Positions 1,744 to 9,131 of a stretch of 17,518 bases of DNA are shown piece after piece (the stretch's first letter is position 1; the number at the start of each line of letters is the position of its first letter). The notes under the pieces are model-generated. The model did no database searches. It was given only the letters and a program-made list of their open reading frames with translations, and was not told where the DNA came from. A program made the position numbers and the translations under genes. This stretch comes from a virus, in IMG/VR virus record IMGVR_UViG_3300045391_006091, positions 1-17,518 of that record; one strand, given 5' to 3'.

Positions 1744-2025
1744 TTACGGCACTACCTGGCGGCAAATCACCTCGAACCTGTGCATCGATTCGATTACAGC
1801 TCGCGCACCTTGAGCAGCATCAGGATCGTCTTGCCAGCGCTCGGCGATCTTGGTCTCGGTGTCGACCATTCGGCACAGCTCGTCGAAGTGCTGCGCCTTT
1901 CGTTCGGACATTGCCGAAGTTGCTTGGATACGCTCTTCACGACGTTTCCAGCACCAACCCTGAACGACGACCGAGAGCAGCAGAAAGACGATCGCGATTA
2001 GCACGTAGCGGATGGGTATCCTCAC
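1744..2025 (-). CDS. small membrane-anchored protein (N-terminal TM helix YVLIAIVFLLLSVVVQGW)
   Basis: 93 aa. GTG start overlaps the TGA of the upstream 371-aa gene (GTGA). AAGGGG SD lies 5 nt upstream. One N-terminal hydrophobic helix, then a charged soluble tail. Confidence 0.55.
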   Translation of the reverse strand: MRIPIRYVLIAIVFLLLSVVVQGWCWKRREERIQATSAMSERKAQHFDELCRMVDTETKIAERWQDDPDAAQGARAVIESMHRFEVICRQVVP

Positions 2026-3137
2026 TTGGTCCCCTTATAGGGATCAGCAGCCCAGGTATCGATCGGTTCCATGCCGGTCGCTTGAGCCGTAGCGTCCAGG
2101 ACCGGCATATCACCGTAGCGATCCATCTGCGTACCGATCGCGACCGGAGCAAGATCGTTATCGATCCAACTGATGAACTCGGGCTCGTTCCAGTGGGCGG
2201 GACGATCCGTCGTAGTCCGGTGATAGCGCGTGTTGTTGTCGCCGTAGATCGGGTTGTAGAACTCGACGAGGGCATAGCGCTTAGCGCCATTTTTGCCGAG
2301 AACGATGACCGCCTTCTTGTCGCTCATCTTGTCGGTGCCGTTGGATAGCCCATCGCCGATGTCGGCAAGATGCTGATCCTTGAACCGCTGGACGACTTTG
2401 CGCACCACCTCCTCATAGGCTGCGACGGAGTGGTAAGTGGGATCCTTGTACGAGGCGACCATGGCTGAGAGCTCGAAGTCATCAAGCTTGACGGGAACCA
2501 CCTCTCGAATGTGCTGAGCAAGAGGTGAGAGATGCTCTTCGAAAATCGAGCAGAAGTCGGCAGCCGCAGCATTCTCCTTGCTGACGCCGGCGGGGCGATG
2601 CGCCGCGGCGCTGAGCTTGGTTTTGAAGTTTCGGTTGACCTGCGAGATCGTGTTGGTGATGAAGCGTGGGTTGATGTTGGCAATGCCACGTGCGAAAGAC
2701 GCAGGTAATTCATAGCCCAGGCCGACCGTGAGCGCAGTGCCGTTCTTGACCGCTTCCTTCGCACCCGCCTGGAACGCCAACAGGCTACCGGAGAACAAAC
2801 CGAGAGCACCCTCGGCACCGAGCAGAATAGTGGCGACGGTAATCCAGACGCTGTGATTCTGACCGGTAGTAGTGAGCAGTTCGGTGCGGACCTTGCCGAT
2901 CGCAGCGTGGAAGTTGGCCATCGCATCGCCGACAACGTCCCCTAGATCGCCGATCAGGCGGGTGCGCTGGTCCTTGTCGAGCCAGCAATCTTCCTTCTCG
3001 GGGTGACGTTCACACGCTGTGCCTTTATCGACGATCGGAATGCCCGTCGATTTCCCAGGAATGATGTGCTTTTGCGGATCGGATGATGTGCCGGCCGCCT
3101 TGCGTTGGCGGTCGAGTAGATCGTGTCCTCCTCCCAT
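2022..3137 (-). CDS. hypothetical protein (371 aa) with internal Gly-zipper-like hydrophobic segment
   Basis: ATG at 3135-3137 preceded by TAGGAGGACCAC (the stop of the upstream gene lies inside the SD). Segment SVWITVATILLGAEGALGLFSGSLLAFQAGA looks like a glycine-zipper membrane-insertion motif. No family recognised. Confidence 0.65.
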   Translation of the reverse strand: MGGGHDLLDRQRKAAGTSSDPQKHIIPGKSTGIPIVDKGTACERHPEKEDCWLDKDQRTRLIGDLGDVVGDAMANFHAAIGKVRTELLTTTGQNHSVWITVATILLGAEGALGLFSGSLLAFQAGAKEAVKNGTALTVGLGYELPASFARGIANINPRFITNTISQVNRNFKTKLSAAAHRPAGVSKENAAAADFCSIFEEHLSPLAQHIREVVPVKLDDFELSAMVASYKDPTYHSVAAYEEVVRKVVQRFKDQHLADIGDGLSNGTDKMSDKKAVIVLGKNGAKRYALVEFYNPIYGDNNTRYHRTTTDRPAHWNEPEFISWIDNDLAPVAIGTQMDRYGDMPVLDATAQATGMEPIDTWAADPYKGTK

Positions 3138-3146
3138 GTGGTCCTC

Positions 3147-3698
3147 CTAGAGTTGAAGAATGGTGTGGGCCACATCCTTGGGACGCGGCAGGTTGGGAAG
3201 AACGTCGAGGATCGTTCTCAGGAACTCGATCCCACCGGCACGAAGACGGTGAGTGGAACCTCGGATTCTCCTCGGAGAGAGCAGCGTGTACATGAGGTCG
3301 AAGTCGAAGAAGGCCATGTCCTGCATCCATTCCGTGAAGGTGTCTCGCTGCTTGACGAGGAACCGCACGTTCTTGTTGGATACAGTGAGATTCTCTCCTT
3401 CGAGGAGGATCGGAGTTCCGATCATGTTCTCCTTGCCTTCGCGTATGGCAAGAGTACAGAGCTGTTCGAGAACGATGATCTTCTCGAAGCCGAGCAGCTC
3501 GTAATGGTCTTTCGTGATCGAAGAAGAGACCACGCCTTTCATACTGTTCTCTGTTTCGACGGAGGTCGGAACTCCATCGGACTCCGAATCCACGATGCGG
3601 CGGATTTGGACGGTGACCTCTTGATTGTTGACTTCGATCACCTCCCATCCGACTCGAACCGTAGCTTCGTTTGGGCTGGCAGTAGGAATAGCTTCCAT
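3147..3698 (-). CDS. hypothetical protein (183 aa from the internal ATG)
   Basis: The track ORF is 3147..3740. The ATG at 3740 has no SD, whereas the ATG at 3696-3698 (MEAIPTAS...) is preceded by AAGGGGAAAGACC, so the start was moved. Confidence 0.55.
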   Translation of the reverse strand: MEAIPTASPNEATVRVGWEVIEVNNQEVTVQIRRIVDSESDGVPTSVETENSMKGVVSSSITKDHYELLGFEKIIVLEQLCTLAIREGKENMIGTPILLEGENLTVSNKNVRFLVKQRDTFTEWMQDMAFFDFDLMYTLLSPRRIRGSTHRLRAGGIEFLRTILDVLPNLPRPKDVAHTILQL

Positions 3699-3754
3699 GG
3701 TCTTTCCCCTTGTTGAAAGAGATGTCCGAGAAGCGGCCATCTTTGTTCAGTTCC

Positions 3755-4124: not shown

Positions 4125-6578
4125 CTAGTGTCCGTTGGACCGGTTCTCGTCGATAGCCTGCTTCGTGACTTCCTGCACCAGCTCCCCGAAGCCCTTCTCC
4201 GCAGCCGCGATGGTGGGAGTGGTGGCGCATCGAACCACCGCCTCTGCGATCTTGGAACCGATCGCATCGCCGAGCACATCCATCGGATGCTCCTCCGTCC
4301 CCTTGTCCGGATTGATGTACTTCACGTGGGCCATCATCTCGATCACCGCTTGCTTGAGATGCTTCGTGGTGATGACCAGATGGTCTGAGTTCGTCTTGCG
4401 TGCGTCACGGATCGCACGGGGCTTCGAACGCTCCACGACTTCGCGGCACACGGCCGGGATCTGACCCGCGAGCATGGCGCCGATCTCGGTGAGATCCGCA
4501 TTCGGCTCGATCAGGTCACGACCGTACATCCGCAGGAGCTGCCTGGTGGCCTCTGCGTCGGGAGGATCGATCGGGATGATCGCATCGATACGTCCAGGAC
4601 GCATCATCGCGGGGTGGATATCATCCGGCGAGTTCGTCGTGAACACCACGATGACCTCGTCCTTCTTGCGATCCACTCCATCCATCGAGTTGAGGTACTT
4701 GTTCATGTCCTCATCCCGCTCACCTTCGAGCACCTCGTCGAGATCCTCGGCGAAGACCACGGCTGGTGCATAGTTCTTCGCGAACTGGAGCGCCTGCGGG
4801 AGATGCTTGATGTTGGTGACGTAGATGAACGTCCAGCCGTGAGCGACTGCCACGTTCGCCGTGACCAAGGCGGTGAGGGTCTTGCCGGTACCGAACGGTC
4901 CTGCGAGCAGGATGCCTCGTCGCAGGGGGAAGCCCATCTTCCGAGCGATGTCGGCGTTCTCGATCGGGACGAACAGGTTCGTATCGACCATCTCGGAGAT
5001 GTCGTGCGAGAGGATCAGATTCTCCTTCGTGGTCCCCGACACGTCCATGAACTTCGGAGCCTTCATCGGATCGAACCCCGGGTCGTCGACCGACAACAGG
5101 GTGAAGTCCGGCCGGATCGCCTTACCCCGGTAGATCGACTCCGTTCGCAGCACCTCACGGGTGAGCTGGATGAGCTGCTCGATCTTGGGATAGTCCCCCT
5201 TGCGGATCAAGCCGGTCAAACGCATGACCGGGAGTCCGTCGACGAGGGCGATCTGCGTCTCGATGTGGCCGGTGACACCATGGAAGGACATCAGACCCCA
5301 CGGGATCTGCACGATCTTGTTGATGTCCGACTCGATCGAGAGCGTGGCCGGCGGGTTGATACCGAAGAAGGTCGCCTTCTCCTCCTGGCTCACGAAGCCG
5401 TAGGTCCGCTCGATCGCCTTGTGCAGCGCCAGTGCGGCGTCGGGCGGATAGTAGCCCGTGAACTTGTGATCGATGGAGATCTCCTTCTCGAGCTCCTCCT
5501 TGTGCTTCCTCAGCCAGTGGATGGCCGTCTTGTGGTTCATCCCAGGAGGGAGATCGATGGTTGGCTTGTCGCTGGCATCCTTGAAGTTGATGCCGACATC
5601 CTTGAACGTCTCGTCGATCTTGTCGTCTGAATCCTTCATATCGGGTTCGTAGTCCTTCCGTTCGTCTTGCCAAGTCTCGAAGGACTCAGCCTTTACTTCG
5701 ACCTCCCCAGCAGGGAGGGCTAGTTGTGCAGTGGGGTTGACAACCTTGCCGGTTTTCTCATGCTCGATTACTGCTTTTGCATTCGGGTCGGCGAGCAGTA
5801 GATGTTCGACGATTGCTTTCGCTGTGGCGTAAGGGACGCCCTCGCTCAACGCAGTCGCCTCGTCGACATCCAGTCCCTTGATGGCCTCATCGACCATTCC
5901 CTTTGCGTCGTACAAGCTCCGTCCGGTTAGTTCACGGACGGCCTTGATGAGGCTGATCGCTCGGGACGAAGTCGCCCCGATCAGCTTAACGGTGAAGTCG
6001 TTCCCAGTCCGGTCGTCACCCATCTCCGTATCGATGGGGTTCCTCGCGTACCTCTCCTCGTCGTTGTAGTACTCACACGAGTGATGGTAGTGGGGGCAGC
6101 CGCAGTCCTCTCGATGCTTGCGTGTTGCCTCCTCGCAGTCGTCTTCTTCACGGGGTTCTCCGATGGTCTTGCATTCCTCACAGGGCTCGATGTGAGGATG
6201 GTTATCGGATTCCGTTCCGTACTGACACCCCCCAACAGGGACATGGATCCACCCGAAGTCGCAGCACCCGGTGCAATCGAACTCCTCGTCGGAGCATTCT
6301 CGACACCAGGCAGAGAACTTCTCGATGAACTCACCAGCGTAGGGAGGGTGATCTCCTCCGCAGTCGGGACAGCGATCCCCGTTGAAGGCTCGAAGGTCCT
6401 TCTCGAGGAACTCGAACTCCTCGAGTTGGAGGAACGTCTTCTGAACTACCGACTTTGGAACCTTGCCCCGATGAGCATCCGGCCCGCCAGCTAGCGCAGA
6501 TATTGCCCTGACACCCACCATCTCCCGGATTGCGTTGAGGTGCGACCGGAACCTCTTTACCTTTTCCTCCCTGTTCAT
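4125..6578 (-). CDS. multi-domain classic-clade AAA+ ATPase: N-terminal Cys/His-rich metal-binding region, ribosomal L7/L12 C-terminal-domain homologue, middle domain, AAA module (Walker A GPFGTGKT, Walker B VVFAEDLDE, SRH/Arg-finger TTNSPDDIHPAMMRPGRID)
   Basis: 817-aa ORF. ATG at 6576-6578 preceded by AAGGAGACGAA. AAA motifs read directly. Residues about 193-278, DFTVKLIGATSSRAISLIKAVRELTGRSLYDAKGMVDEA...LSEGVPYATAKAIVEHL, align almost position for position with E. coli L7/L12 CTD [60 protein letters not shown]. Residues about 69-169 carry roughly 20 Cys/His in CxxC-type spacings. Confidence 0.9.
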   Translation of the reverse strand: MNREEKVKRFRSHLNAIREMVGVRAISALAGGPDAHRGKVPKSVVQKTFLQLEEFEFLEKDLRAFNGDRCPDCGGDHPPYAGEFIEKFSAWCRECSDEEFDCTGCCDFGWIHVPVGGCQYGTESDNHPHIEPCEECKTIGEPREEDDCEEATRKHREDCGCPHYHHSCEYYNDEERYARNPIDTEMGDDRTGNDFTVKLIGATSSRAISLIKAVRELTGRSLYDAKGMVDEAIKGLDVDEATALSEGVPYATAKAIVEHLLLADPNAKAVIEHEKTGKVVNPTAQLALPAGEVEVKAESFETWQDERKDYEPDMKDSDDKIDETFKDVGINFKDASDKPTIDLPPGMNHKTAIHWLRKHKEELEKEISIDHKFTGYYPPDAALALHKAIERTYGFVSQEEKATFFGINPPATLSIESDINKIVQIPWGLMSFHGVTGHIETQIALVDGLPVMRLTGLIRKGDYPKIEQLIQLTREVLRTESIYRGKAIRPDFTLLSVDDPGFDPMKAPKFMDVSGTTKENLILSHDISEMVDTNLFVPIENADIARKMGFPLRRGILLAGPFGTGKTLTALVTANVAVAHGWTFIYVTNIKHLPQALQFAKNYAPAVVFAEDLDEVLEGERDEDMNKYLNSMDGVDRKKDEVIVVFTTNSPDDIHPAMMRPGRIDAIIPIDPPDAEATRQLLRMYGRDLIEPNADLTEIGAMLAGQIPAVCREVVERSKPRAIRDARKTNSDHLVITTKHLKQAVIEMMAHVKYINPDKGTEEHPMDVLGDAIGSKIAEAVVRCATTPTIAAAEKGFGELVQEVTKQAIDENRSNGH

Positions 6579-6587
6579 TTCGTCTCC

Positions 6588-6625
6588 TTGAAAAAGAAAA
6601 CGCGCCCTAGGACGGACGCGTTTCC
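6588..6625 (-). terminator. intrinsic terminator (stem AAACGCG/CGCGTTT, extendable, then TTTCTTTTTCAAG on the minus strand) just upstream of the AAA+ gene RBS
   Basis: Inverted repeat 6600-6606/6619-6625. The U-tract lies 3' on the minus strand. The region 6626-6736 upstream of it is the lowest-GC stretch in the window, so a promoter is possible there. Confidence 0.6.
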
Positions 6626-6736
6626 CAGCCTCGAAAATGATGGTTCGCTACCTGATCGGCTCGCTCTGCATTTGAAGGAGACTTCTGATCAACTTACGTT
6701 CCATCTAACTCTTATCTCGACTGTGCTTTGACTTTT

Positions 6737-6988
6737 TCAGTTGAAGCGAATCGTGCATCCCTTGCACGCATAGCCACAACCTACTGCTCCTTTGACTCTA
6801 TGACCCGTCGGACCGATGGCAGTGAAGCCGGTGCAGGTGTCATCGCTCTTCGAGCATGTGAACGCCGAGTATCCCGTGAGCTCGATGTTGGTGAAACCAG
6901 CATCCTCGAGTGTCTGACGGGCAGCACTCTCATTGGTACAGCTTGGGGCGATTGAAAACAGCACGAGAGCCAGCAGCGCAGATTTCAT
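6737..6988 (-). CDS. small secreted or lipid-anchored Cys-rich protein (83 aa; signal peptide MKSALLALVLFSIAPSC, 6 Cys)
   Basis: The track ORF 6737..7123 overlaps the gyrB 3' end in another frame. The internal ATG at 6986-6988 is preceded by a perfect AGGAGG (6-nt spacer) that overlaps the gyrB TAG. An N-terminal hydrophobic h-region is followed by a Cys-rich mature part (FTC, DTC, VGC, YAC, KGC). Confidence 0.65.
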   Translation of the reverse strand: MKSALLALVLFSIAPSCTNESAARQTLEDAGFTNIELTGYSAFTCSKSDDTCTGFTAIGPTGHRVKGAVGCGYACKGCTIRFN

Positions 6989-6998
6989 ATCGATCCTC

Positions 6999-9131
<2,133 letters not shown>

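Follow-up and report, generated by a model that had tools for sequence, protein, structure and literature searches.

What a domain of the ribosomal stalk is doing in the middle of a phage ATPase, and whether it has any function there, is the question raised by a gene of the IMG/VR virus record IMGVR_UViG_3300045391_006091. The whole 17,518-nucleotide stretch of this record was analysed (hereafter referred to as the window), and the gene, located at positions 4125 to 6578 on the minus strand in the list of its open reading frames (ORFs), starts with ATG and encodes a protein of 817 residues. The start codon is backed by the alignment, in which six homologues share the initial MNxxER motif. The public collection contains an identical protein (P0001), as an entry with one member from one Joint Genome Institute (JGI) metagenomic contig of 17,518 bp corresponding to the window.

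The gene is genuinely phage-borne: residues 341-783, which form the core of the encoded protein, place it in an AAA+ ATPase family that is widespread among phages. The product has a four-part architecture, lacks both of the pore loops and carries ribosomal protein bL12's C-terminal domain (CTD) as an insertion found in this single sequence. The interpretation favoured here, to which a probability of about one half is assigned, is that the protein forms a phage ATPase ring which does not thread its substrates and which has acquired L12 domains on flexible tethers for docking, possibly of translational GTPases.

The inserted bL12 domain

In the original prediction, which was made from the sequence alone, residues 193-278 were described as matching the L7/L12 CTD almost residue for residue. 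The presence of the domain was confirmed by several sensitive sequence search methods. The Pfam model PF00542 matched residues 195-235 of the whole protein with 28.9 bits and the isolated segment with 35.7 bits (E 1e-8, profile positions 1-53 of 67), in both cases above the gathering cut-off of 25.9 bits. A phmmer search of the PDB sequences with residues 179-296 retrieved L12 chains (1ctf, E 0.0027), the sole other match being a weak one to a uL22c chain (E 0.49). When 1.84 billion representative proteins were searched exhaustively with HMMER, 36 other matches were obtained at E <= 1e-3 (best 1.3e-15), with alignments reaching query positions 91-96; all 17 of these that were inspected (seven by eye and ten by Pfam) are L12-CTD proteins, mostly with tandem repeats. 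A separate profile of 70 positions, constructed from 89 L12-CTD units and the E. coli CTD, matched residues 194-255 over positions 3-67 with 33.5 bits. Since this profile, Pfam and the exhaustive search agree, the domain is taken to be complete and to span residues ~194-259 (nt 5802-5999). Thus, the domain stands, whereas neither its extension to residue 278 nor the closeness of the match does, as the segment, in which IKAVRELTG is present, is 37% identical to the E. coli CTD and 45% identical to the consensus. The C-terminal boundary is ambiguous because of a near-repeat at the end of the domain (TAKAIVEH ... NAKAVIEH, residues 252-275, window 5754-5825, minus strand), either copy of which could supply the last beta-strand.

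The CTD of the target is homologous to that of ribosomal bL12 over its whole length, but the protein is without the N-terminal dimerisation and uL10-binding domain and without the hinge. No match to the L12 N-terminal domain was found in the protein by the Pfam and NCBIfam scans, and the TIGR00855 equivalog scored 24.1 bits against a cut-off of 84.4, at profile positions 57-99 only. As the uL10-binding domain is absent, the protein would be unable to replace bL12 on uL10, and on its predicted domain content stalk replacement is excluded.

The surface of the domain was compared with that of E. coli L12, in which residues 66-70 and 80-85 contact the translational GTPases, K95 is contacted by L11, and L58, L94, L106 and L110 form the hydrophobic core (PMC3505967). 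In the residue map, this core is retained as L199, I233, L244 and V248, with Ile and Val at the positions of L94 and L110. Residues I69, K70, R73, T76, G77, L80, A83 and K84 (E. coli numbering) are kept, and V66I, V68L and E82D replace residues conservatively; helix 4 has ISLIK where E. coli has VAVIK, with R73 kept as R215, and helix 5 has LYDAKG in place of LKEAKD. The loop residues 91-93 are deleted. Whether the residues contacting EF-Tu and EF-G are conserved can therefore be answered in part: five of the 11 positions in the two GTPase-contact regions are identical and three are conservatively replaced, but K65 is lost. Twenty positions are conserved in 80% or more of the L12-CTD units; in the target, 10 of these are identical and four conservatively replaced. 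Because several strongly conserved positions have been changed or lost, factor binding is possibly weakened or retargeted; as judged from these residues, it is plausible but not assured.

The insertion is confined to one lineage. Six relatives (P0002-P0007; 690-856 residues), whose identity to the target is 47-62% along most of the length, show an alignment gap of about 100 residues opposite target residues ~182-283, and the L12 profile scored at most 1.8 bits on the five relatives that it reported, as against 33.5 bits on the target. The N-terminal helical region, the Cys/His module, the N-domain and the AAA module are common to all seven proteins in the alignment. The L12-CTD lies in frame, in this one phage only, within the variable linker that joins the Cys/His module to the N-domain. 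This linker differs in length among the relatives and holds other insertions in P0006 and P0007. Scans of IMG/VR with the protein and with the family alignment, of metagenomes and of the GTDB genomes revealed no further copies of the L12 fusion. More relatives were likewise found neither in IMG/VR nor in the GTDB genomes, and the metagenome scan returned only the contig of P0007. A word-indexed homology search with residues 1-350 was empty and missed even the six true relatives, which reflects a limit of the index and not absence.

Both flanks of the insertion continue the same homologous gene in frame. The GC content at third codon positions (GC3) is 0.69 in the insert, 0.70 in the flanking N-terminal part and 0.68 in the linker, and the codon fit is slightly poorer in the insert. 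Because the GC3 is already like that of the flanks, the insertion appears not to be very recent. The insert is at most ~47% identical to any of the 1.84 billion representative proteins and is thus not a piece of a sampled rplL gene. No direct or inverted repeats of significance were found to flank it.

The occurrence of L12 domains in other proteins is a known phenomenon. The bL12 protein is the second most common virus-encoded ribosomal protein (PMC6375957), and bL12 domains embedded in larger phage proteins, for which homologues without the domain exist, were interpreted as the outcome of many independent acquisitions (Mizuno et al. 2019, PMC6375957). In those proteins, a CTD ~30-40% identical to cellular L12 resides in a larger polypeptide, and the target is likewise phage-encoded, with the CTD inside a larger polypeptide and with six homologues lacking the insert. 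The carriers differ, however, being a rIIB-like protein of phage Ea9-2, a 418-residue Salmonella phage protein and stand-alone proteins of ~100 residues; none is an AAA+ ATPase. The Ea9-2 carrier (AHI60108, 724 residues, L005 4793-6967) matches N4 gp34 with an E-value of 1e-133 and PF00542 with 28.1 bits at residues 146-210, a score similar to the 28.9-35.7 bits of the target. It was considered as a homologue of the ATPase and rejected, as it is rIIB-like and the AAA homologue of Ea9-2 is a separate gene of 482 residues without L12. N4 gp34 itself (L007 9986-12076) aligns through the L12 region of AHI60108 and looks similar there, below Pfam significance.

The closest relatives of the insert are non-ribosomal bacterial proteins with tandem L12-CTDs (37-47% identity). 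Two to six tandem copies are present in this group (P0009-P0044), which includes a TIR_2 domain with three L12-CTDs (P0031), six L12-CTDs with LRV/HEAT (P0010) and lipoprotein-like forms. An immunity role, perhaps in sensing something that binds the stalk, is hinted at by the TIR fusion. In contrast to these fusions with TIR_2, LRV/HEAT or signal peptides, the target has a single copy inside an ATPase, and a Walker A motif was found in none of the 36 closest L12-like proteins. An L12-CTD has also been described in one cyanobacterial orthocaspase (PMC8283722). The earlier statement that no described family has this architecture is thus borne out for the pairing of AAA+ and L12-CTD, which was found nowhere else, but passes over the precedent of embedded phage bL12 domains; the AAA+ carrier is new as far as found.

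A phage AAA+ family lacking both pore loops

Residues 341-783 align to profile positions 24-462 of 483 of phrog_10440 (E 3.1e-111). The 440-residue core was identified by tblastn in 73 phage records, with 35-42% identity among the 30 listed. The phages concerned include Schitoviridae (Erwinia phage Ea9-2), Pseudomonas KPP25, Littlefix, Zuri and Delftia PhiW-14, further Klebsiella, Salmonella, Gordonia and Mycobacterium phages and a 595-kb uncultured phage. The members of phrog_10440 (such as Ea9-2 AHI60095, KPP25 and PhiW-14 gp235) share with the target the N-domain and the single AAA module with an ED Walker B and missing pore loops. The cultured members are proteins of ~480-560 residues that differ in being without the Cys/His module and without L12, and their annotations range from 'FtsH' to '26S proteasome subunit'. 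Because the ED Walker B and the loss of both pore loops extend to the whole family, including the homologues at L004 3926-5374 and L008 2815-4497, the phrog_10440 labels 'FtsH', 'metalloprotease' and '26S proteasome subunit' are probably misleading. An assignment of the family to N4 gp24, the 'AAA+ ATPase' core gene of N4-like viruses, was rejected for want of any similarity. The remark in the original prediction that classic-clade AAA proteins are sparse in bacteria is beside the point, the gene being phage-borne.

The AAA module was recognised by PF00004 at residues 556-670 (59.7 bits against a cut-off of 21.2). Its Walker A motif is GPFGTGKT (560-567), sensor 1 is TTN (647-649), and the second region of homology contains MRPGRID (659-665) with the Arg fingers R660 and R663; Walker A, the sensor-1 Asn and the second region of homology with its two Arg fingers are invariant in the seven relatives. 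The assignment to the classic clade is upheld by these features, but the Walker B motif claimed with them is not canonical, since VVFAED (607-612, within VVFAEDLD) has ED in place of the hhhhDE pattern. Neither E611 nor D612 varies within the family, and the Ea9-2 and LR756511 homologues likewise read ED. In the PDB, the module is closest in sequence to Cdc48/VCP (E 1e-37), with 73 bits on Cdc48 D2 for the single sequence and 82.6 and 81.5 bits on D2 and D1, respectively, for the family profile. Cdc48/p97/VAT, PAN and FtsH, which provide the best sequence matches, share Walker A, sensor 1, the second region of homology and the two Arg fingers with the target. Unlike these proteins, the target is without a double-psi-barrel N domain and falls far below every NCBIfam family cut-off, and it has one AAA module and not the two of Cdc48/p97/VAT.

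The pore loops of such ATPases are the elements that grip and pull the polypeptide. At the site of pore loop 1, the target has a gap of eight residues relative to Cdc48 D1 and D2 and reads TFIYVTNIKHLPQ, with no aromatic-hydrophobic-Gly motif; at the site of pore loop 2, a gap of ~10 residues relative to D1 and D2 leaves a truncated and acidic remainder. The two gaps and the ED motif recur in all of the family members examined, which range from this clade to Ea9-2 and the phage of 595 kb. In view of these family-wide features, the designation of the protein as an unfoldase is doubtful, and this part of the original prediction is not supported.

An instance of an ATPase acting without threading is the mitochondrial Bcs1, which translocates the folded Rieske iron-sulfur protein and in which the critical pore-loop residues are not conserved (PMC7994207). 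The N-domain of the target was modelled (residues 330-525, 23 sequences) with a mean predicted local distance difference test score (pLDDT) of 86. A search of the PDB with this model using Foldseek placed Bcs1 entries in all of the top six positions (E 1.7e-4 to 5e-3, probability 0.89-1.0, template modelling (TM) score ~0.29), Bcs1 occupying ranks 1-6 and 9 of the nine best matches, and a search of BFVD retrieved viral ATPases, some of them annotated as 'mitochondrial chaperone BCS1'. The N-domain profile had no match among the PDB sequences. In mouse Bcs1, Walker B is LVLLEDVD, and no pore-loop-1 insertion interrupts the alignment with the family profile across beta2-alpha2. Thus, the target resembles Bcs1 in its ED Walker B, its missing pore loop 1 and the alpha/beta N-domain directly ahead of the AAA module. 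It differs from Bcs1 in that the fold match is weak (TM 0.29), the similarity of the AAA module is far below that to Cdc48, and no transmembrane anchor is evident in the sequence. Membership of the AAA module in the Bcs1 type was rejected, with 38.4 bits for the family profile on the mouse Bcs1 AAA module as against ~82 bits on Cdc48 and with no Pfam match to BCS1_N in the target. The Bcs1 link would thus serve as a functional analogy and a lead, not as a statement of membership.

Possible roles of the inserted domain

The docking interpretation proposes that the ATPase assembles into a ring and that, given the family-wide loss of pore loops 1 and 2 and the ED form of Walker B, no polypeptide is threaded through it. 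By analogy with Bcs1, such a ring would act on folded partners through its N-domains and the zinc module. It would display six or seven L12 domains on flexible tethers of ~80 residues (~260-340), in a manner resembling the multi-copy ribosomal stalk, which in bacteria holds 4, 6 or 8 copies of bL12 (PMC10931766). The L12 domains would dock the G domains of EF-Tu, EF-G, IF2 or RF3, or else L11, by avidity, which could offset the weak affinity of a single site. Such binding would recruit the ATPase to the translation apparatus or retain the factors on the ring.

The interest of this interpretation lies in the carrier. Phages have repeatedly captured the bL12 CTD; here, the carrier would be an oligomeric ATPase, so that several copies would be displayed on flexible tethers, and a multi-copy tethered display is the geometry used by the ribosome to catch translation factors. 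In addition, phrog_10440 presents a Cdc48-like AAA module without both pore loops and with an ED Walker B as in Bcs1, which suggests a non-threading mode of action.

Several observations weigh against the docking interpretation. A single sequence, on one contig of 17.5 kb, shows the insertion, which bears no sign of selection and may be a recent passenger. The L12 fold is a prediction from sequence, and the sole AlphaFold2 (AF2) model of the segment is of low confidence and all-helical. The pore-loop deletions are read from sequence alignment and not from structure. Conserved L12 positions are altered (K65A, G62S, L78R, G79S, K81Y, D85G and G114T, with P91 deleted), and the affinity of a lone L12-CTD for the factors is weak, with a dissociation constant (Kd) of 0.1-0.4 mM (PMC3505967). 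The window offers no pointer to a translation-related function, since a scan for tRNA genes was negative and no other ribosomal gene is present in it. Docking of translational GTPases is rated as possible, the factor-contact residues being only partly conserved.

The main rival, considered rather unlikely, is that a tolerant linker received the L12-CTD by illegitimate recombination and that the L12-CTD is a passenger or a retargeted domain, either functionless or binding a partner outside translation, the protein working like its relatives without L12. The insertion is present in one of the seven subfamily members and in none of the wider family, and the linker is a hot spot for insertions and deletions, as the different insertions in P0006 and P0007 indicate. 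A passenger would also be consistent with the change of half of the most conserved L12 positions, with the slightly poorer codon fit of the insert and with the promiscuity of PF00542, which occurs in many unrelated non-ribosomal proteins (PMC6375957; PMC8283722). This rival is opposed by the intact frame, the retention of the hydrophobic core and of the IKAVRxxTG...AK motif, the GC3 values, which speak against a very recent event, and the purifying selection reported for viral ribosomal-protein genes in general (PMC6375957).

A more specific form of the docking interpretation, to which only a small likelihood is given, is that the ring is a free-standing stalk mimic, in which six or seven tethered L12-CTDs would capture the GTP forms of EF-Tu, EF-G, IF2 and RF3 by avidity, and the ATPase cycle together with the zinc module would hold, release or remodel them. 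If this were true, it would amount to an ATP-driven control by the phage of the pool of host translation factors, or to a concentration of the factors at the sites of phage protein synthesis.

Still less probable is the proposal, contained in the original prediction, of a threading unfoldase that captures translational GTPases or ribosome-associated proteins through the L12-CTD, with a stalk-mimic toxin or phage-defence effector as its variant. The AAA module is indeed like that of Cdc48, PAN and FtsH, with Walker A, sensor 1 and the Arg fingers intact, and the factor patch of L12 is partly kept. However, the pore loop 1 motif is missing, pore loop 2 is truncated and acidic, Walker B is ED family-wide, and the window revealed neither a protease domain nor a protease partner. 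The defence variant found no support, as the gene lies in a phage replication or early region and not in a defence island, its neighbours are phage genes, and PADLOC and NCBIfam gave only generic AAA matches far below the cut-offs. Among these, the anti-phage ATPase IetA/IteA and TRIP13 were rejected (IteA 38.5 bits against a cut-off of 510; PADLOC IetA 40 bits, over the AAA part only).

It is highly improbable that the inserted domain is an adaptor like ClpS, selecting substrates for the AAA partner to which it is fused; ClpS is an adaptor of the AAA+ protein ClpA and shares a SCOP superfamily with the L7/L12 CTD (PMC544345), but all of the sequence matches are to L12 and none to ClpS, the identity between ClpS and L12 being ~11%. 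Least probable of all is an assembly chimera with a junction to a bacterial rplL gene between positions 5700 and 6050, for which the single metagenomic contig with its one member could be cited and which is very unlikely, as the homologous gene resumes in frame on both sides, no L12 N-terminal domain was carried along, the segment matches none of the representative proteins beyond ~47% identity, GC3 is continuous across the insert and flanking repeats are wanting.

Other parts of the protein and neighbouring genes

The features of the gene and its product are collected in the table below. A Cys/His-rich region had been predicted at residues ~69-169 and was found, in slightly wider limits, at residues 66-181. 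Fourteen positions are invariant in all seven proteins (C70, C73, H77, C102, C105, H112, C118, H129, C133, C136, H155, C159, C161 and C168), and multi-zinc binding is inferred from this pattern. The zinc-finger models of Pfam gave only sub-threshold hints for the region. The module is a conserved feature of a small uncultivated phage clade, in which it was gained along with the helical region at the N terminus. For residues 1-340, the AF2 model (seven-sequence alignment) has a mean pLDDT of 49.6; it is unusable for the L12 segment (pLDDT ~45-53, all-helical) and for the Cys/His module too, the helices 3-31 and 42-65 (pLDDT 60-80) being its only moderately confident part.

Table. Features of the AAA+ ATPase gene in the window
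Feature	Position	Strand	Evidence
Complete coding sequence, phage AAA+ ATPase with N-terminal extensions, 817 residues	4125..6578	-	ORF list; phrog_10440 E 3e-111
N-terminal helical region, residues 1-65	6384..6578	-	Conserved in the seven-member subfamily alignment
Cys/His-rich presumed multi-zinc module, residues 66-181	6036..6383	-	14 Cys and 8 His; no Pfam match
Lineage-specific in-frame insertion, residues ~182-283	5730..6035	-	Alignment gap in P0002-P0007
bL12 C-terminal domain, residues 194-259, without L12 N-terminal domain	5802..5999	-	PF00542, PDB, exhaustive search, own profile
Acidic variable linker, residues 284-340	5559..5729	-	Poorly conserved, length varies among relatives, low pLDDT
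Family-specific alpha/beta N-domain, residues 341-520	5019..5558	-	
Single AAA module, residues 521-760	4299..5018	-	Walker A, Walker B ED, sensor 1, Arg fingers; both pore loops missing

All of the sizeable ORFs of the window are on the minus strand, and the neighbours of the ATPase gene are phage-type genes. Synteny with the relatives is conserved; in these, a gene similar to the major vault protein (MVP), a GyrB gene, one intervening gene and the AAA gene follow in this order, on contigs of up to 170 kb that carry other phage genes. A small gene downstream of the AAA gene in the relatives was considered as a stand-alone L12-CTD and rejected, as it is homologous instead to a 101-residue ORF of the window.

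Immediately upstream of the ATPase gene, a full-length GyrB-type subunit of topoisomerase II (707 residues, 6999-9122, minus strand; phrog_543, E 1e-153) is encoded. No GyrA-like partner is visible in the window, and the adjacency of GyrB and AAA genes is conserved in the relatives. The intervening gene of the relatives encodes 314-370 residues with CxxC motifs (L001 8634-9746; L003 8779-9723); at the same site, the window has ~420 nucleotides (6579-6998) without a homologue of it.

The ORFs of 371 residues (2022-3137, minus strand) and 197 residues (3147-3740, minus strand) have neither a Pfam or PHROG match nor a counterpart in the syntenic relatives. They lie between homologues of the 71-residue and 136-residue genes of the relatives and look like a lineage-specific insertion. 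In an ORF of 448 residues (15200-16546, minus strand), the N-terminal part is a phrog_35624 region and the C-terminal part a class II aldolase/adducin domain (E 9e-7).

The MVP-like ORF of the window, of 866 residues (10347-12947, minus strand), likewise lies upstream of the ATPase gene; it matches MVP_shoulder (2.6e-28) and Vault_3 (1.2e-10), with a weak Vault repeat, and is 59-61% identical to its counterparts in the syntenic phage contigs L001/L002 and L003. Only one literature report of viral MVP homologues was found, from gut phages (bioRxiv 10.1101/2023.11.10.566534), and the phage clade represented here is apparently a different one.

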